In this document: in pieces, positions 7,980 to 46,549 of the stretch
How the letters are laid out: each line of letters starts with the position of its first letter
Numbering within the stretch: position 1 is the stretch's first letter
Assembly (NCBI GenBank): GCA_021815205.1
Contig: JAKAHD010000002.1
Coordinates: 45,538-109,537 of the forward strand
Length of the DNA stretch: 64,000 nucleotides
From: a bacterium
GTDB taxonomy: Bacteria; Patescibacteriota; Minisyncoccia; UBA6257; GWB1-50-10
Direction: 5' to 3'
Program-made: the position numbers and the translations under genes
The notes under the pieces: model-generated
Told to the model about the DNA's origin: nothing
Database searches by the model: none
Seen by the model: only the letters and a program-made list of their open reading frames with translations

Positions 7980-9329
7980 TCACTCTCCGAGCGTCGTTTG
8001 CACGAAGCTCCCATCGCGCTTCATTGCGTAGATTGTGTTTCCTTCCGGAAACACCTTCTTAATCGCACTGCTTATAATCGAGATGTTTTGGGGCGTTCTG
8101 TTGTCGAGTTCGGCGAGTGCGGCGCCCTTCGTGCCGAGCACAAGGCCGTAGTCGGGAAAGCTCGGAAGCCAGAAAAACTCGCGGGGTGTTCCGAGCGAAT
8201 CAGGGAGCTCAATGCTCCACTCGGCGCCCTGGAGCACGTCGGTATCGCTGTGGTAATCTTTGAGGGCGAGCATGCGAAGCGAGCCGTCGGTTCCAAGGAG
8301 TGCGAGTCGTTCCTCTCCGGGCGAGAGGAAGAATGACTGCACGCCATGCGCAAGGAGATTGATGGTATGGGAGCTTCGGTCGTAGCGGGAGAGATCGCCG
8401 TTCTTCTTGAGCAGGAAGATTTCGTTGCCGCCCGGATTCGTCTCAAGTTTTGTGGTGTTCACGGCGCCGAGAGCGTACTCGTTCGTGGTCTGAAGAAGCA
8501 GGTTGAATACGAGAAGCTTCCCTTCGTCGTTCACGAGAAACACCTCGTTTTCGGATGTGGTCGCCGCGACGATGTGCGGGAAATTCGAAAGGAGATCAAT
8601 TCGCGTCCGCCGCAAGTCGAGAAGATACAAGCCGTTCGAAGTAGTAAGAAGCAACCTCCCCGCGCTAAAAGGGTGGAAGAGAATCCGGGTGATAGGCCCC
8701 GCCGCACTTTTTGCGGTGCGCCCGGAGAGAGAGGCAAAAAGCGAAGAAATATTCGTACTGCTCGCGGGGTTCTGGAGGTCGGTAAAGAAGTAGTTTTTTC
8801 CCTCGCTCGAGATGAGGTAGTTCGAGTCTTTATCGCTTACCGCGACGTTCGTTCCGCGGAGTGTCGTACCGTCGAAATGGAGCGAGCGCTTCGCGTCGCT
8901 CGTTACGGCGCCGCTTTGGGTGAGCCAGAAATCGGAGATGGGGTCTTTCGCGACCTCGGTGAAGCTGAATGTTGCGGGCCACAGTGTGATACGCGCCGCC
9001 GCGGTGACAATTCCCGATTTTACGGCGAGATCCTTCGTCCATGAATCATATCCATTTTTTGCGAGTACGAGATGATACGCGCCCGGTTTGAGGTCGGTGA
9101 TAAGTACGCCGGGAATCACGAATCCCTGCGATGCGTCTTCCAACACCCCATTCAAGGTAAGTGAAGCGTCGGTGGGATTGAACTTTAAGAAGAGCGCGCC
9201 AGTTTTCACGAATCTGAAATTGTTCGCGTCAAACACAAGGCCTTGCGCGGTGAGAAGAAGATACGCGCCCACGATTACGAAGACGAGTATAAAAAAATAG
9301 AAGAGAACTCTTCGCGCAACAGTGTTCAT
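7980..9329 (-). CDS. membrane-anchored PEGA-domain protein with C-terminal beta-propeller-like repeats (hypothetical)
   Basis: Start at MNTVARRVLFYFFILVF (RR + TM); PEGA-like segment LITDLKPGAYHLVLAKNGYDSWTKDLAVKSG; + strand ORF 8346..9044 is its shadow. Confidence 0.55.
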   Translation of the reverse strand: MNTVARRVLFYFFILVFVIVGAYLLLTAQGLVFDANNFRFVKTGALFLKFNPTDASLTLNGVLEDASQGFVIPGVLITDLKPGAYHLVLAKNGYDSWTKDLAVKSGIVTAAARITLWPATFSFTEVAKDPISDFWLTQSGAVTSDAKRSLHFDGTTLRGTNVAVSDKDSNYLISSEGKNYFFTDLQNPASSTNISSLFASLSGRTAKSAAGPITRILFHPFSAGRLLLTTSNGLYLLDLRRTRIDLLSNFPHIVAATTSENEVFLVNDEGKLLVFNLLLQTTNEYALGAVNTTKLETNPGGNEIFLLKKNGDLSRYDRSSHTINLLAHGVQSFFLSPGEERLALLGTDGSLRMLALKDYHSDTDVLQGAEWSIELPDSLGTPREFFWLPSFPDYGLVLGTKGAALAELDNRTPQNISIISSAIKKVFPEGNTIYAMKRDGSFVQTTLGE

Positions 9330-9664
9330 GCCTATAGTATGGTACGCATGAGGAGCGATATTTTCAAGGCAAGGATGCATAAGGCCACATACATATTGCA
9401 CTCGGTGAGGCCATCGCCTCACCCATGAGAATCCATTGTACATATACCGGTGTCAAAGGGATGTTGACGGTATACCGTGATGCGTTACGCTCGAAGAGGG
9501 TGAAAGAAATTTTTCTCTGCCATATCCTTAAGAAGGATGGTAAAAGTTTTATGTGTTCAAAATATGGACACAGAGAATTATCAAGAGAAGAGCTTAGATG
9601 GCTTAATGAAATTCGTCGTAAATAATCAATGGTCTAGCAAAATAAATAGCCCTCTGTAAAGATA

Positions 9665-10051
9665 TTACAAAGGGCTTTTCATTATCTCTAATATCCTCTC
9701 CCTAATTTCTTTATAGGGAGTGGATAATCTAACCGCAACAACAGGAACCTCAGGATGTTTGATTCGGTGATCCTCCACAAAATTAGGACCAGTCACCGAA
9801 AGAGGAATAAACTTATACCTCTTATCAACGAAAATAACATAAAAATCTATTCCGTTAATCACATCAGAATAACTAAAATTCCCACTGCTTACGAAATTAA
9901 CAATCTCCTTGTTATCCCTCATCTTTAAAAGAGCCTTTTCTACTTTTTGCTCTCGTATTTTCCCAATTTTCAATTTCCACCTTGGCTGGTTTTCCTTTCT
10001 CTTCAAGACGATTTCCCTCATTTGAAGAAAATTATTTGTCCTTAAAGACAT
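9665..10051 (-). CDS. hypothetical protein in AT-rich island
   Basis: 128-aa ORF (MSLRTNNFLQMREIV...) in a ~0.9-kb AT-rich segment unlike flanking DNA; no motif recognised. Confidence 0.3.
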   Translation of the reverse strand: MSLRTNNFLQMREIVLKRKENQPRWKLKIGKIREQKVEKALLKMRDNKEIVNFVSSGNFSYSDVINGIDFYVIFVDKRYKFIPLSVTGPNFVEDHRIKHPEVPVVAVRLSTPYKEIRERILEIMKSPL

Positions 10052-10103
10052 CACTACCTCCTTTAATCTATACGGGCTGATAATAAGTATAGCATGAATA
10101 AAT

Positions 10104-10171
10104 CCCGTAAGAAGCTCACACGGGGTAGTAAACCCAGCGTTCGCCACGGGGATTTCTGCTTTTCACGGGAT
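10104..10171. repeat. MITE-like element X (terminal inverted repeats cccgtRagaagc / gcttYtcacggg)
   Basis: tcccgtaagaagctcacacggggtagtaaacccagcgttcgccacggggatttctgcttttcacggga; second copy at 47103-47229 carries a nested insertion. Confidence 0.7.
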
Positions 10172-10364
10172 AAAACGAAGAAACTTGAATTCTTTCCAAA
10201 TTGAAGTTACAGTAGGGATGTTACCCCGCACATAATAAAGCGCATAAGAGAAGCCTAGGTTATATCGGGGTTACCTTGTACAATAGCCGAGTGTAGTATA
10301 AAGAGCCTTATGTGCGGGGTGCTCAATTTTATAGTTGCTCGCTCCGCTCGCAAATAAAATTGGC

Positions 10365-11375
10365 ATGTTCATCAGAAAAATAGGAATCGACCTGGGGACC
10401 ACGAACACCATCGTGTTTTTGCCCAATCGGGGGATCGTGATCAACGAGCCGACGGCGGTCGCGCTCCGCAGGCCGGGGAACAATGTGCTTGCGGTCGGTG
10501 CGGAAGCAAAGGAGATGGTGGGACGCACGCCGGACGATATCGTAACGTACCGGCCGCTGAAGGACGGAGTGATCGCGGAGTATTACATCACGCAGGCGAT
10601 GCTCAAGTATTTCATCTCGAAGAGCGTTGGTTCTTTGAACGTGTTTCGCCCCGAGGTGGTGATCTCGGTGCCTGCGGGGATTACCTCGACGGAATACCGC
10701 GCCGTGATGAACGCCGCGAAAGAAGCGGGCGCGAAGGAGGTGTATCTCGTAAAAGAACCGCTCTTAGCCGCGCTCGGCGCGGGCATTCCGATCCACTCCG
10801 CGGAAGGAAATATGATCGTGAATATCGGCGGCGGCACGACGGAGGTTGCCGTGATTTCTTTGGGAGGCATTGTGACGTGGGCGAGCGTGCGCGTCGCGGG
10901 GAACCGTTTTGATCAGTCCATCTCGGATTATGTAAAGAAAAAGTACGGCCTCGCGATAGGGGACGCGACCGCGGAGCACGTAAAAATCTCCATCGGTACC
11001 GCGCTTCCGAACCGGGCAAAGACCGAGATGAAGATTCGCGGAAGAGATCTCGCATCGGGGCTTCCCAAAGACCTCCTCGTAAACTCGAACGAGGTGGCGG
11101 AAGCGGTGAACCCTCATCTTGTGGATATCATGAGCGCCGTCCAGTCCGTTTTCAACGTGACGCCGCCCGAACTTGCGGCGGATATCATGGAGAAGGGGAT
11201 TATTCTCTCGGGCGGCAGTGCTCAACTCCGCGATTTCGAGGAGTTCTTCAAGCGTTCGCTCGGCGTTGCGGCGTATGTCGCGGAAGAGCCCATTCTCTGT
11301 GTCGCAAAAGGCACGGCGATTATCTTGAATCACCTCGACGTGTATAAGCGTACGCTCCTCAATAAAGCCCGCTAA
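10365..11375 (+). CDS. mreB: rod shape-determining protein MreB (actin homolog), paralog 1
   Basis: [15 protein letters not shown]...NEP..VA; ATP-binding motifs; start at second Met. Confidence 0.9.
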   Translation: MFIRKIGIDLGTTNTIVFLPNRGIVINEPTAVALRRPGNNVLAVGAEAKEMVGRTPDDIVTYRPLKDGVIAEYYITQAMLKYFISKSVGSLNVFRPEVVISVPAGITSTEYRAVMNAAKEAGAKEVYLVKEPLLAALGAGIPIHSAEGNMIVNIGGGTTEVAVISLGGIVTWASVRVAGNRFDQSISDYVKKKYGLAIGDATAEHVKISIGTALPNRAKTEMKIRGRDLASGLPKDLLVNSNEVAEAVNPHLVDIMSAVQSVFNVTPPELAADIMEKGIILSGGSAQLRDFEEFFKRSLGVAAYVAEEPILCVAKGTAIILNHLDVYKRTLLNKAR

Positions 11376-42447: not shown

Positions 42448-42798
42448 ATGAATATCTCGTTTAACCAGTTTAAAGAATTGGATTTAAGGATCGCGAAGAT
42501 TCTTGAGGCGTCGCGGGTCGAAGGATCGGAGAAGCTCGTGAAACTTCTCATTGATATGGGCGGTGAAAAGCGTGAGCTCGTTGCGGGAATAGGCAAGGCA
42601 TACGATCCGGACGTGCTCGTGGGGAGGGAGATTGCGGTTGTTGCGAATCTTGAGTCGAAAATCTTCACCCTTCGACTCAGCTCAGGGCAAGTGGCGCTCG
42701 AAAGCCAGGGGATGCTTCTTGCGGCACACGGTGCGCAGGGTGAACCCGTACTCCTTGTGCCCGAGAGAGAAGTGCCGCCGGGAAGCACAATCACGTAG
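42448..42798 (+). CDS. tRNA-binding protein (CsaA/Trbp111-like OB fold)
   Basis: F.ELDLR...I.EA......KL.KL.ID.G...R.LV.GI...Y.P..LVG...AVV.NL; start at MNISFNQF. Confidence 0.75.
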   Translation: MNISFNQFKELDLRIAKILEASRVEGSEKLVKLLIDMGGEKRELVAGIGKAYDPDVLVGREIAVVANLESKIFTLRLSSGQVALESQGMLLAAHGAQGEPVLLVPEREVPPGSTIT

Positions 42799-42929
42799 CA
42801 AAATTTTTAATTTGAAATTTACAATTTTCAATCAAATTCTAATTTTATAATGCGTTAATGTTTAAATATTATAACATTATTGCATTTAAAATTGATTAAA
42901 AATTAAGAACTAAAAATTAAAAATTCTTA
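42799..42929. repeat. AT-rich ~130-bp inverted repeat (same family as 29589-29692)
   Basis: aatttttaatttgaaatttacaattttcaatcaaattctaatttt ... aaaattgattaaaaattaagaactaaaaattaaaaatt. Confidence 0.5.
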
Positions 42930-42935
42930 TTGCTT

Positions 42936-43787
42936 ATGTCTCGTCCCAAAATCGGTGCGCACGTATCAGCCGCGGGCGGGCTCTGGACGGCATTCGACCG
43001 GGCCAAAGAAATCGGCGCCGAGTGCATGCAAATATTCGGTTCGACGCCGCGTTCATGGAGCGTGAAACTCCCGACCGCACAGGAAGCGGATGCGTTCAAA
43101 AAAGCGGGGAAGCGTGCTGGCATCGGCCCCGTGTATCTCCATGCGCCGTACCTTGTGAATCTCGGGAGCGGAGAGGCGCGTATCCACGGCGCCTCGGAAT
43201 CGGCGCTTGCAGGGCACTGTAAAATCGCTGAGATGCTCGGCGCGGAAGGCACCATTTTTCATATCGGTTCCGCGAAGGGAACGACAAAAACGAAAGCAAT
43301 CGCGGCGATCGCCGCTTCGCTTACGGCGATTTTGAAAAAGGTTCCCGGGAGAAGTTTTATCGTGCTTGAGAATGCGGCGGGCGGGGGAGACAAGATCGGG
43401 GCGACGCCCGAGGAGATTGCCGTGATTCTCCGGAAGGTAAAAAGCAATCGGCTCAAAGTGTGTTTTGATACGGCGCACGCCTTCGAGGCGGGGATCATAA
43501 GAGATTACGAACCGAACACAATAAAGGAACTGTTTGACGCGTGGGACGATGCGCTCGGTATCAATCGGATCGTCGCGTTGCATGTGAATGATTCGAAGAC
43601 CGAATATAACTCGCATAACGACCGGCATGGAAATATCGGCGAAGGGTATATCGGGCTCAAGGGATTCAAGGCGCTCGCGAAGGAGAAGCGGCTTTGGGAC
43701 AAGGCGTGGCTCCTTGAGGTGCCCGGGACGGATCATAAGGGGCCGGACAAGGCGAATGTGGATCGCCTGAAATCATGCTTTGGTTAA
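42936..43787 (+). CDS. nfo: endonuclease IV (AP endonuclease family 2)
   Basis: Xylose-isomerase-like TIM barrel motifs (GAHVS..GG, LHAPYLVNL, LENAAGGG, FDTAHAF, HVNDSK...HNDRH). Confidence 0.9.
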   Translation: MSRPKIGAHVSAAGGLWTAFDRAKEIGAECMQIFGSTPRSWSVKLPTAQEADAFKKAGKRAGIGPVYLHAPYLVNLGSGEARIHGASESALAGHCKIAEMLGAEGTIFHIGSAKGTTKTKAIAAIAASLTAILKKVPGRSFIVLENAAGGGDKIGATPEEIAVILRKVKSNRLKVCFDTAHAFEAGIIRDYEPNTIKELFDAWDDALGINRIVALHVNDSKTEYNSHNDRHGNIGEGYIGLKGFKALAKEKRLWDKAWLLEVPGTDHKGPDKANVDRLKSCFG

Positions 43788-43926
43788 TGTCTGCGGCCTC
43801 CCTCTTTTCACTCGGGCGCTCCGGGGCGCTAGCCCAAGTCTTACCCTCGCTCAGAGAGGGACGCCGCAGACGCTACAAGGACTTCGCATATTTTGGCGAT
43901 TTGTGGGAGAATAAGGGGAGAGGAAT

Positions 43927-44145
43927 ATGCGTATATTAGTAACGGTAAAACCGAGGGCGCGCAAAAAAGAAGTGGTGAAAATTGATAGAACTCATTACGA
44001 GGTGTGGGTTACCGTGCCGCCCGAAGGGGGAAAAGCGAACGCGGCGGTACGCGATGTGCTCGCGGAATTTTTGGAGGTGCCGAAATCACGTCTCGTGCTT
44101 TCGTCCGGCGAAACGTCGAGAGAAAAAACATTTGAGATACTGTGA
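43927..44145 (+). CDS. DUF167/YggU-family small protein
   Basis: 72 aa; V.VKP.A.K..V.......V....PPE.GKAN.A....LA..L.V.KS...L..G..SR.K. Confidence 0.6.
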   Translation: MRILVTVKPRARKKEVVKIDRTHYEVWVTVPPEGGKANAAVRDVLAEFLEVPKSRLVLSSGETSREKTFEIL

Positions 44146-44441
44146 GCTTCAGGGAAAAAGTACTCCGCGCGGTGAAGCGGATTCCGAAGGGAAGCACCGC
44201 GAGTTACAAGGAAGTAGCGGAGGCGGCAGGGTGCCCTGGCGCCTACCGCGCCGTGGGGACAATTATGAAACATAACACCGATCCGAGCGTGCCGTGCCAC
44301 AGAGTAATCCGGTCCGATGGGTCGCTTGGCGGGTACAACGGGATACGGGGAAAGAAAGAAGCGTTACTCCGAGAAGAAAGGCGCCCCCGTGCGAGGTTGA
44401 ACCTCGCACGGGTAGAAATCTCTCCTCGAGGAGGAGTTTGA
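44142..44441 (+). CDS. ogt: methylated-DNA-[protein]-cysteine S-methyltransferase, DNA-binding/active-site domain only (Ogt-like, 99 aa); GTG start
   Basis: PCHRV active-site motif, HTH (TASYKEVAEAAG...AVG). Confidence 0.75.
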   Translation: MSFREKVLRAVKRIPKGSTASYKEVAEAAGCPGAYRAVGTIMKHNTDPSVPCHRVIRSDGSLGGYNGIRGKKEALLREERRPRARLNLARVEISPRGGV

Positions 44442-44589
44442 TAAAATAAGGAGATGGGATTGAAGATCAGGGATTTTTCCGCATCGGTTATCAGAAAAAT
44501 TTTCGGGCTTCTCGAATTTTTCCTTTTCTTAAGAGTAGTGCTTGAGTTTTTAAATGCGAATCCCGCCGCGGTCGTGGCGGATTATTTTT

Positions 44590-44635
44590 ACCCCCACACT
44601 GAGCGTAAGCCCATAGTGTGGGGGTTTATCGGATC
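44590..44635. repeat. Y-type palindromic repeat (acccccacac-N-gtgtgggggt)
   Basis: tttacccccacactgagcgtaagcccatagtgtgggggtttat; same tttaccccc.../...gggggtttac ends as copies at 16040 and 57385. Confidence 0.65.
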
Positions 44636-44899
44636 ACCGGTTTTTTCACATCCCCGTTCAATTCCATTTTTCCTTCTGCCCAATTATGGGGGCATGTGAT
44701 CGACATTGTGACGATATCCGCCATTATCGCGTACTGGATCGCATTCGAGATTATTATGAAATTCCTGACGTCAAAGAAAATCTACTACTCATAAGGCTGG
44801 AACGGAAGAAGATCTCAAGAAAATACGGGAGAAACAAATCCGAGTAGAGGTGGAATCTATATTTACGACACCTCCTCTTTATGGCATTATGTAGTATAT

Positions 44900-44983
44900 G
44901 CTCAGGTGTCGGAACTGGTAGACGATCACGACTCAAAATCGTGTGGCCGTAAGGCCGTGAGGGTTCAAGTCCCTCCCTGAGCA
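44900..44983 (+). tRNA. tRNA-Leu (anticodon CAA)
   Basis: Acceptor gctcagg/cctgagc, anticodon stem cacga/tcgtg with loop cuCAAaa, long variable arm ggccgtaaggcc, T-arm gaggg-ttcaagt-ccctc, discriminator A. Confidence 0.85.
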
Positions 44984-44985
44984 CA

Positions 44986-45555
44986 ATGGGAGTACGAACA
45001 TCATTTCATCGAGCGTCTAGTGCGGATACTTTAGAAAATAAAGAAAATCTTTCTTATGTCATTGGTGTAGCCATTGGTGATGGTAATCTCTCAAATCCAA
45101 ACGGAAGGACAGTGCGCTTAAGGGTAACTTGCGCCACTCAATACCCGAATCTTATCAGGCAAATAAAGAAATCTATAGAGAAAGTATTCCCGCATAATAA
45201 AGTATCCCTCGTGAAAAGAAAGGAGACATATTTGGATGTCAGCTGTTATTCCAATAAATGGGAGAGTATTCTTGGATGGAGAGCGTCTGGCGGTTCGAAA
45301 TACAAACAAAGCGTTTCTGTTCCCCAATGGATAAAAGAAAATAAAAGATATTCCATGAAATGCCTGCAAGGACTGTTAGTGACCGATGGCTCCTTATATC
45401 TTGATAGAGGGTATAGAATGATTAATTTTACGACTGTGATTCCACGGCTTGCGCAAGACGTGAGAGAAATGATTGTTAATTTATGGTTCAGCTCAAGAAT
45501 CTACAGATTAAAAACAAAAGGAAAAGATAAGTATGTTATTAAGAATAGCAACTAA
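44986..45555 (+). CDS. LAGLIDADG homing endonuclease (two-motif, free-standing)
   Basis: LSYVIGVAIGDGNL and LQGLLVTDGSLY motifs; AT-rich ORF starting 3 nt after tRNA-Leu. Confidence 0.8.
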   Translation: MGVRTSFHRASSADTLENKENLSYVIGVAIGDGNLSNPNGRTVRLRVTCATQYPNLIRQIKKSIEKVFPHNKVSLVKRKETYLDVSCYSNKWESILGWRASGGSKYKQSVSVPQWIKENKRYSMKCLQGLLVTDGSLYLDRGYRMINFTTVIPRLAQDVREMIVNLWFSSRIYRLKTKGKDKYVIKNSN

Positions 45556-45607
45556 TGTGGATAATTTCATAAAAACGGTCGGTTTCAAAAAGGATTAAGT
45601 TTGGCTT

Positions 45608-46549
45608 ATGGCTCGCGTCATAGCAGTATGCAATCAAAAAGGGGGCGTCGGGAAAACCACAACCGCAATGAATCTTGCGGCATATCTCGCAATATATGGG
45701 AGACGGGTGCTCCTTATTGATTTCGACCCGCAGTTCAATGCGACGTCCGGATTGGGCGTGACCTACGCGCCGGACGAGACGATCTACCACGCACTCCTCG
45801 GGGGACAGGCGCACGAGCGGGTGATCAAGCGCACCTATCTCGCAAATCTCGAGCTTACGCCCGCGTCTCCGGATCTCGCGGGGGCCTTGGTGGAGCTTGT
45901 GAATCTTCCCGAGAGGGAATGGTATCTGCATCGCTTTGTGAAAAAGGTGGGGGATTGGTATGATTTTGTGCTCATAGATCTCGGGCCAAGTTTAAACCTT
46001 CTCACCGTGAACGGGCTTCTCGCCGCGGATGAAGTCTTAATCCCTGTGCAGTGCGAATACTACAGTTTGGAAGGATTGTCCCAGCTCTTGGAGAGCATCG
46101 AGCTCATCAAGAATAATCTGGGGCACGAGATTCGTTCGGTGAGCGCCCTTATCACCATGTACGACAAACGGGAAAAACTTTCGCGCGAGATTGCGCGCGA
46201 AGTGCGCCGCCGTTTTCCGTACAAGGTGTATGAGGCGGAGATACCGCGATCGGTGAGTCTCGCCGAAGCGCCGAGTTACAAAAAACCGATCATGCTCTAC
46301 GCGCCGCAGAGCCCCGGCGCGATCGCGTACGAGGCGCTTGCGCAGGAGATTCTCGGGATGGTCGAGGAACGCGTGATGGGTACGCATCCTCCCATGCGCC
46401 CGGTCGAGAAAAAACTCGCCTCGATGCAAAAAGAAGCGTCTCGGATAGTGGAATCCGCGATGCAAGAAGAAGCCGCGCGCGCCGATTTCGAAGCACCCCC
46501 CTTTGAACTTCCCCTGGACGCCCCGTATCCCTTTGACATCTTGCGATAA
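45608..46549 (+). CDS. parA: chromosome partitioning ATPase ParA/Soj
   Basis: Deviant Walker A KGGVGKTTTA; ParA family; C-terminal extension. Confidence 0.9.
   Translation: MARVIAVCNQKGGVGKTTTAMNLAAYLAIYGRRVLLIDFDPQFNATSGLGVTYAPDETIYHALLGGQAHERVIKRTYLANLELTPASPDLAGALVELVNLPEREWYLHRFVKKVGDWYDFVLIDLGPSLNLLTVNGLLAADEVLIPVQCEYYSLEGLSQLLESIELIKNNLGHEIRSVSALITMYDKREKLSREIAREVRRRFPYKVYEAEIPRSVSLAEAPSYKKPIMLYAPQSPGAIAYEALAQEILGMVEERVMGTHPPMRPVEKKLASMQKEASRIVESAMQEEAARADFEAPPFELPLDAPYPFDILR

Follow-up and report, generated by a model that had tools for sequence, protein, structure and literature searches.

Why does a gene for a LAGLIDADG protein begin 3 nucleotides (nt) behind a tRNA-Leu(CAA) gene in a patescibacterial genome, and is that tRNA gene its target? 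The locus lies in a stretch of 64,000 nt, here called the window, from a member of the Patescibacteriota (Minisyncoccia; UBA6257; GWB1-50-10; GenBank assembly GCA_021815205.1, contig JAKAHD010000002.1, positions 45,538 to 109,537 of the forward strand). Homing endonucleases are familiar as residents of introns and inteins, and phages and organelles carry free-standing genes for them. A first-pass annotation of the window had proposed that a homing endonuclease gene invaded next to the tRNA locus, or targets it. Our analysis favors this proposal on the basis of a foreign GC content, empty sites in relatives, linkage of the gene family to one tRNA gene and two aspartates predicted to be catalytic. 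We consider it probable that the gene is a slightly decayed, free-standing homing endonuclease gene that targets tRNA-Leu(CAA), and that its family has its home in the slot 3' of that tRNA.

An endonuclease gene of foreign composition behind tRNA-Leu(CAA)

The tRNA-Leu(CAA) gene (44900-44984, + strand) was identified by ARAGORN and by Rfam (RF00005, 52.6 bits over 44900-44983). It encodes a complete, uninterrupted type II tRNA with a 7/7 acceptor stem. CCA is not encoded, and the 3' junction reads ...GAGCA-C-A-ATG. The ATG starts an open reading frame (ORF) of 189 amino acids (aa) at 44986-45555 (+ strand, frame 0), 2 nt past the discriminator A and C74 of the tRNA, or 3 nt after 44983. An Rfam scan of 43800-46200 at E ≤ 10, which covers the DNA 3' of the tRNA, returned the tRNA and chance matches only, with no group I or other intron family. 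The tRNA is thus free of introns, as had been read from the sequence.

Pfam matches lie in both halves of the predicted protein, LAGLIDADG_WhiA in the N-terminal domain (E = 7e-5) and LAGLIDADG_3 in the C-terminal domain (E = 5.8e-9), which bears out the earlier assignment of a double-motif enzyme. The motifs are VIGVAIGDG (24-33) and LQGLLVTDG (127-135). Their acidic residues, D32 and D134, are invariant in all 29 sequences of an alignment of the window protein with 28 relatives (alignment A1). An AlphaFold2 model (predicted local distance difference test score 91.7) places the two LAGLIDADG helices at residues 16-32 and 120-134, ending exactly at D32 and D134. A PDB sequence search with the protein and with the family profile gave noise (BamA POTRA) and I-DmoI at E about 0.1 only. 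Because I-DmoI was barely detectable in this way, a fold comparison was needed. In Foldseek the best PDB matches are I-DmoI (E = 1.5e-8, template modeling score about 0.65, 19-22% sequence identity), the endonuclease domains of PI-SceI and the Tli intein, I-Tsp061I and WhiA.

Pfam detects no Hint/intein domain, helix-turn-helix (HTH) or other extra domain in the protein. WhiA-type proteins are marked by a degenerate active site and a C-terminal HTH. Here the aspartates are kept, the protein has about 190-203 aa and no domain is added, and we exclude a WhiA-type regulator. The sequence and the model together suggest that the ORF encodes a compact, monomeric, two-domain LAGLIDADG enzyme of the I-DmoI type whose active site appears intact. 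Within the I-DmoI-like group it is a new and distant member.

The composition of the gene is foreign to the adjoining DNA. Its GC content is 37.2%, compared with 52.2 ± 4.2% in segments of equal length (z = -3.6), and 0.4% of such segments are equally low. This agrees with the first-pass description of DNA far more AT-rich than its surroundings. GC at third codon positions (GC3) is 0.35, compared with 0.63-0.66 in the flanking MGMT-like and parA genes.

The ORF occupies the entire gap between tRNA-Leu(CAA) and parA (45608-46549, + strand), which was identified by Pfam (AAA_31/CbiA/ParA) and by synteny with relatives and is a conserved neighbor of tRNA-Leu(CAA) in the lineage of the window. From 45000 to 45608 there is no terminator-like site and no promoter-like site on the + strand.

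The window copy is frameshifted near its 3' end

The first-pass annotation took the ORF to be intact, and here it needs correction. The 28 relatives in A1 continue as ...RYNIRISKNVxxFIKxIxxxK, whereas the window copy halts at KYVIKNSN and a stop (45555). When read against A1, the frameshift site (45541-45547, + strand) has one extra A in AAGAATA relative to the family, a 1-nt insertion located near 45544. The last 17 conserved codons and the stop now stand in the +1 frame at 45545-45598 (+ strand), where they read IATNVDNFIKTVGFKKD before the stop. The C-terminal pattern NVxxFIKxIxxxK is kept in 28/28 relatives in A1. In the repaired 203-aa protein, LAGLIDADG profile matches reach residue 200, further toward the C-terminus than in the unrepaired protein.

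The identical truncated protein occurs on 11 contigs from several sequencing runs, including one NCBI metagenome-assembled genome (MAG), GCA_027423515.1. Therefore the frameshift is real and not a one-off assembly error. Its consequence is the loss of the last helix of the enzyme: in the model, domain 1 is complete, while domain 2 stops after the fourth strand and lacks the final helix of the fold. The acidic residues are retained in both motifs, although the frameshift shows degeneration starting. The window copy is an ordinary, slightly decayed member of its family, and its state fits the degeneration phase of a homing cycle.

A large family linked to tRNA-Leu(CAA)

We found at least 627 homologues of the window protein, mostly about 189 aa long and 52-62% identical. 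The homologues with a name belong to the Falkow-, Uhr-, Magasanik- and Parcubacteria and to the 'Patescibacteria group'. When a single genome per species was scanned, 146 confirmed loci emerged. Where a lineage is named, it is almost always a group of the candidate phyla radiation (CPR); some MAG records bear other, unconfirmed phylum labels. Counts below refer to the best 80 of the 146 loci from other genomes, of which 72 have usable upstream sequence; loci are cited by L numbers.

tRNA-Leu(CAA) stands directly upstream of the endonuclease gene, on the same strand, in 66/72 usable loci. The gap between tRNA end and start codon is 0-27 nt across these loci, and the start is ATG or, in some, TTG. 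Three exceptions still adjoin the same tRNA. A complete tRNA-Leu(CAA) begins 2 nt after the endonuclease stop in L056, and in L006 and L060 tRNA-Leu(CAA) is adjacent on the opposite strand. The downstream neighbor varies by lineage, being parA in some and a miaA-like gene in others, which makes tRNA-Leu(CAA) the constant partner.

L039, L029 and L051 have no adjoining tRNA and have in common a sequence, CGATTTTGAAAATAGGTGCGAGCTTGGTAAAATAA, about 35 nt upstream of the ORF. It looks like a -35/-10 promoter and may mark these three as a sub-group with its own expression signal.

Annotation pipelines already call some members 'LAGLIDADG family homing endonuclease', and some sources say WhiA. Gene callers ran the family ORFs P0011, P0098, P0031, P0095 and P0119 upstream into the tRNA. 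N-termini such as ...EGSSPSPGT... are translated tRNA T-arm and acceptor and not genuine protein.

Empty sites and an inverted module

Is the gene a fixed part of this locus? Using ParA as a handle, we collected 80 metagenomic loci whose ParA is 59-88% identical to that of the window. In about 60 of these loci tRNA-Leu(CAA) lies near parA, at a distance of up to about 50-150 nt and mostly on the opposite strand. Only three of these roughly 60 loci (L132, L146 and L155) hold the endonuclease family of the window, in each case 3' of the tRNA. The first-pass annotation had raised the case of a locus identical in all relatives. Most relatives lack the gene, and even the orientation of the tRNA differs between the window and its nearest relatives.

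In L087 (ParA 80% identical) the order yggU-MGMT-tRNA-parA is the same, with the tRNA on the minus strand and without the endonuclease gene; a terminator alone separates the tRNA from the MGMT-like gene. In L086 (ParA 88%) the minus strand carries the 5' half of the tRNA, about 55 nt away from parA, with no endonuclease gene between. The protein collection contains no relative with a ParA closer than 88%, and no nearer endonuclease-free sister of the window organism. Sporadic presence at one site, with empty sites in relatives, is the pattern at this locus.

Positions 44860-44989 of the window align in reverse to L087 3360-3498, which holds the tRNA and the parA-tRNA spacer (74% over 140 nt). 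This reverse alignment indicates that the module of promoter, tRNA and endonuclease gene is inverted in the window with respect to its nearest relatives. The stretch directly 5' of the tRNA (44855-44899, + strand) corresponds, in diverged and inverted form, to the spacer between parA and the tRNA in the relatives and is probably the promoter region of tRNA-Leu(CAA). No strong sigma-70 consensus was found in it. The promoter-like spacer of parA that L086 and L087 have in common is absent from the window. There parA, having lost its own promoter region, sits behind a spacer of 9 nt (45599-45607, + strand) that follows the original endonuclease stop codon. This spacer is too short for a promoter and holds no tRNA remnant.

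Similarities between ParA proteins and between endonucleases disagree. The endonucleases of the window and L132 are 49% identical and their ParA proteins 70%; for the window and L146 the values are 58% and 59%.

Displaced tRNA fragments

Behind the endonuclease stop codon, many family loci carry the 3' end of a further tRNA-Leu, an A-rich stretch and a terminator hairpin, in that order. A tRNA profile in nhmmer proved too insensitive for such short remnants, with only 3 above controls. Therefore we used a 15-nt probe for the tRNA-Leu 3' end instead (up to 2 mismatches, within 150 nt past the stop). It matched in 11/80 loci and in 0/240 control windows. Loci with a remnant include L014, L028, L036, L063 and L065, and two loci of the parA set, L146 and L155, have one in addition to the 11.

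Some fragments start at the stop codon itself, as in L014 (taa followed by GTCCCTCTCCGGGCAC), L146 (tga followed by GGGTTCAAGTCCCTCCCTCGGCAC) and L155 (taa followed by AATCGTG...CCCGGGCAC). In L036 the fragment spans the tRNA from the variable arm onward, and in L065 from the anticodon loop onward. The fragments often differ from the resident tRNA by paired changes in a stem: GTGGG/CCCAC against GAGGG/CCCTC in L036, and GAGGG/CTCTC against GCGGG/CCCGC in L065. The acceptor sequence of the fragment is unlike that of the resident tRNA in L146, L155 and L063. The compensatory stem changes indicate that the fragments come from a different functional tRNA allele and are not decayed copies of the resident gene.

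L146 is more complex. Downstream of its minus-strand endonuclease gene (about 1-640 in locus coordinates), a second copy of a tRNA-Leu 3' end lies about 190 nt beyond the remnant at the stop codon, and an inverted, interrupted tRNA-Leu copy lies between the two. These multiple copies suggest repeated invasions or rearrangements.

Other nucleases in the same slot

The slot is not reserved for one nuclease family. On their minus strands, L133 (1873-2598), L148 (2560-3255) and L152 (689-1300) encode members of another double-motif LAGLIDADG family, which is distantly related and about 242 aa long (MPKPKLPFKEFEW...LAYAIGLIVTDGNL...FLRGHLDGDGSI). The 242-aa protein of L133 begins 3 nt after tRNA-Leu(CAA). 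A 58%-identical relative lies directly 3' of tRNA-Leu(CAA) in L148, and the relative in L152 lies directly 5' of tRNA-Leu(GAG). A gene for a GIY-YIG protein of 80-89 aa (Pfam E = 5e-10) sits right behind tRNA-Leu(CAA) in L118 (461-703) and L120 (127-393). Behind the L118 copy comes a tRNA 3' remnant (about 760-788), 4 nt ahead of the parA start. GIY-YIG relatives also lie just 5' of the tRNA in L164 (792-1022, - strand) and L088 (855-1073, - strand).

The tRNA itself can change between close relatives. Over 2.3 kb that begin precisely at parA, L133 and L134 share 95.6% identity. Their tRNA-Leu(CAA) genes (in the segments L133 2601-2740 and L134 54-159) lie in opposite orientation and are only about 75% identical. 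The presence of other nuclease families in the same slot and the unlike tRNAs of L133 and L134 show that the tRNA-Leu locus is a recurrent target of nuclease-gene invasion and rearrangement.

The tRNA of L134 ends 9 nt before the parA start, the same distance as that of the endonuclease gene in the window.

A proposed homing cycle at tRNA-Leu(CAA) and its alternatives

If the gene homes to tRNA-Leu(CAA), how might the cycle run? The gene would have no promoter of its own and would be expressed by read-through from the tRNA promoter, a co-transcription that we infer from the lack of space for a separate promoter. In precursors without an encoded CCA, RNase Z cleaves behind the discriminator base, and on that basis processing of the tRNA 3' end would leave a nearly leaderless mRNA. 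The enzyme would cut tRNA-Leu(CAA) loci that are free of the endonuclease gene. Repair would then copy the gene from a donor, often with a replacement 3' part of the tRNA or with the whole donor tRNA, and tRNA function would be kept. The 3' tRNA fragment of the recipient would be displaced downstream of the endonuclease gene, an architecture found in other loci, and would decay afterwards. The window copy is probably an older insertion, with the remnant gone, the module inverted and abutting parA, and the last helix cut off.

Several results weigh against this account. Tight spacing by itself is not special, since other host genes likewise begin right behind tRNA-Leu(CAA) in compact CPR genomes. 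Remnants occur in only about 15-20% of family loci, and the window has no significant tRNA remnant downstream of its endonuclease gene; two candidates (17/21 at 44412 and 16/21 at 44554) match no better than expected by chance in the window and were rejected. Column by column, 71 endonuclease-linked and 51 other tRNA-Leu(CAA) sequences gave no universal immunizing substitution. The sole differences between the two sets are in D-stem pairs and are apparently lineage-related, and an immunizing tRNA substitution was dropped as a signature of target and immunity. The 3' flanks of empty sites show no conservation past C74, and a conserved right half-site was rejected. No relatives of the endonuclease were found in IMG/VR viral contigs, and we do not retain a phage vector. 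Finally, 79 of the 80 loci of other genomes are full length (the exception, L065, has an in-frame stop). This exceeds the expectation of simple gain and decay, although the peptide patterns of our locus scan favor intact copies.

The tRNA comparisons also weigh against a simple version of the cycle. The identities of endonucleases and of their linked tRNAs correlate weakly (Spearman 0.07). The endonucleases of L021 and L033 are 82% identical and their tRNAs 65%; for L015 and L019 the values are 78% and 66%. Such pairs, close in the endonuclease and unlike in the tRNA, in themselves speak for mobility. We therefore reject obligatory co-transfer of the whole tRNA. The weak correlation and the mismatched pairs suggest that the ORF moves by itself in some cases and together with part or all of a tRNA in others. 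Whether tRNA-Leu(CAA) is uniquely hypervariable received a mixed answer. Between L152 and L162, in the parA set, identity is 0.59 for tRNA-Leu(CAA) and 0.97 for tRNA-Leu(GAG), whereas across the family loci tRNA-Trp is as divergent as tRNA-Leu(CAA), and CPR tRNAs diverge fast in general. We limit this claim to individual cases.

One alternative is an ancient relic: a single insertion behind tRNA-Leu(CAA) in an early ancestor of the CPR, followed by vertical inheritance with many losses and by loss of mobility. Pairwise identities of 50-63% across classes do resemble those of host proteins, sub-groups (for example, those with an MRGYFR N-terminus) cluster in related lineages, and the closest endonuclease pairs usually have near-identical tRNAs. 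A long residence should nonetheless have faded the 15-point GC deficit and the GC3 gap of the window copy. Remnants with 0-2 mismatches imply recent events, dozens of independent losses would be required inside the parA clade alone, and vertical descent does not account for the discordance with ParA in the window-L132 and window-L146 pairs or for that between endonuclease and tRNA in L021 and L033. We regard a relic as unlikely. The high proportion of full-length copies speaks for domestication, in which the host keeps the protein for a job tied to tRNA-Leu(CAA) or to the downstream operon (WhiA-like DNA binding or regulation, or an RNA maturase-like role) and the linkage reflects co-expression. 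It is joined by 45 positions that are invariant over distant CPR lineages, by a placement that always forces co-transcription with the tRNA, by the WhiA labels of some relatives and by WhiA among the fold matches. WhiA and maturases, however, tend to lose the catalytic aspartates that are invariant here, and the protein has no HTH or added domain. The gene is also missing from most close relatives with the same tRNA locus, its composition is foreign, and a frameshifted copy persists in several samples. Displaced tRNA fragments and unrelated nucleases in the slot indicate invasion. Domestication thus appears quite improbable.

That the ORF belongs to a tRNA-associated group I intron or another splicing element, or to an intein, is hardly credible. 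Group I introns are numerous in the tRNA and rRNA genes of Patescibacteria, and the endonucleases of the rRNA introns are of the LAGLIDADG type (PMC13011429, PMC11270868). Here the tRNA is complete, the scan for intron families was negative, the ORF fills the space between tRNA and parA, and the protein has no Hint/intein domain. The reading that we prefer remains a free-standing homing endonuclease gene that targets tRNA-Leu(CAA).

A bolder extension of that reading is possible, and we offer it tentatively. The tRNA-Leu genes of Patescibacteria may be a battleground of 'cleave-and-replace' cassettes, each combining a nuclease gene (of the present LAGLIDADG family, of the second one or of the GIY-YIG type) with a cleavage-resistant but functional tRNA or tRNA 3' part, its stems recoded by compensatory changes. 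The nuclease would destroy the sensitive native allele, repair would install the cassette, and tRNA 3' processing would provide a leaderless mRNA. Repeated rounds could drive the unusually fast turnover, inversion and replacement of tRNA-Leu(CAA) between close relatives such as L133 and L134.

Relation to known systems

The closest structural relative, I-DmoI, is a monomeric enzyme encoded in an archaeal 23S rRNA intron. Like the family described here, it has about 190 aa and two LAGLIDADG domains, with an acidic residue ending each helix. I-DmoI lies inside an rRNA intron, whereas the present gene is free-standing behind a bacterial tRNA gene and its window copy is without the last helix.

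In genomic arrangement the nearest parallel is found in the mobile ORFs (mORFs) of fungal mitochondria. In Allomyces atp6 and Glomus atp6, atp9, cox2 and nad3, a LAGLIDADG or GIY-YIG ORF is inserted where an essential gene ends. Ahead of the ORF stands a replacement for the 3' part of the gene; behind it stands the native 3' part, displaced and different in sequence (PMC3630166). Part of the family loci have the same order of tRNA, endonuclease ORF and displaced tRNA 3' fragment. The host gene here is, in contrast, a bacterial chromosomal tRNA gene, in which function must be kept via paired stems and not via synonymous codons. The window copy also has no duplicated 3' end, and in the family loci either tRNA copy may be the native one.

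T4 SegB is likewise a free-standing endonuclease gene among tRNA genes. It encodes a GIY-YIG enzyme in a tRNA cluster, which cuts tRNA gene DNA at the T-psi-C stem-loop and drives the inheritance of itself and of neighboring tRNA genes (PMC2330249). SegB belongs to another enzyme family, is phage-borne and spreads at co-infection, whereas the present family is chromosomal and bound to the CAA isoacceptor. In the same phylum, LAGLIDADG genes in CPR rRNA insertions and tRNA-intron endonucleases of Patescibacteria also place an endonuclease in a highly conserved RNA gene (PMC11270868, PMC13011429). Those genes interrupt the RNA gene inside introns or insertions, and the present gene does not. The reported Patescibacteria tRNA-intron endonucleases are of the HNH type. 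A free-standing LAGLIDADG gene behind tRNA-Leu(CAA) is not mentioned in either source, as far as their text is searchable.

A large chromosomal family that keeps to the 3' end of a single tRNA gene throughout a bacterial super-phylum is apparently undescribed in the literature searched. The present analysis adds three things: linkage to tRNA-Leu(CAA) holds across the family, tRNA fragments lie displaced behind the gene in part of the loci, and several nuclease families converge on this tRNA. If our reading is correct, the mitochondrial strategy of a mobile ORF with a replacement gene end would extend to bacterial RNA genes. It would also offer a reason why tRNA-Leu(CAA) is rapidly replaced and inverted between some close relatives in the CPR, and it would amount to a natural counterpart of engineered cleave-and-rescue gene drives. 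The family would further be a source of dozens of diverse I-DmoI-like enzymes, compact at about 190 aa. Their likely targets, tRNA-Leu gene variants, could be guessed from context, which would be useful for studying how specificity evolves. For annotation the loci carry a warning: callers extend such ORFs into the tRNA, and some copies, including that of the window, are pseudogenes.

Other features of the window

The first-pass annotation had also pointed to a second AT-rich island at 9440-10330 with an unassigned ORF. Both descriptions hold: GC is 0.416 for 9001-10000, and the ORF (9665-10147, - strand, 160 aa) has no significant Pfam match. It is flanked by a 487-aa ORF (7980-9443, - strand) and an MreB-like gene (10335-11375), and no link to the tRNA element was found.

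Between the MGMT-like gene and tRNA-Leu(CAA) lies a YggT-like gene (44454-44794), which has no counterpart in the syntenic L087. A perfect 32-nt hairpin, CCCCACACTGAGCGTAAGCCCATAGTGTGGGG, at 44592-44623 breaks this gene into two frames and occurs once in the window. Deleting exactly those 32 nt gives a single ORF of 102 aa, which matches the Pfam family YGGT over nearly the full profile (E = 7e-5, below the curated cut-off).

The lowest GC near the endonuclease gene, about 0.2-0.3 in 200-nt windows, is found in an extremely AT-rich spacer of about 140 nt (42790-42930). This spacer lies directly upstream of a gene of the AP-endonuclease family (42930-43787).

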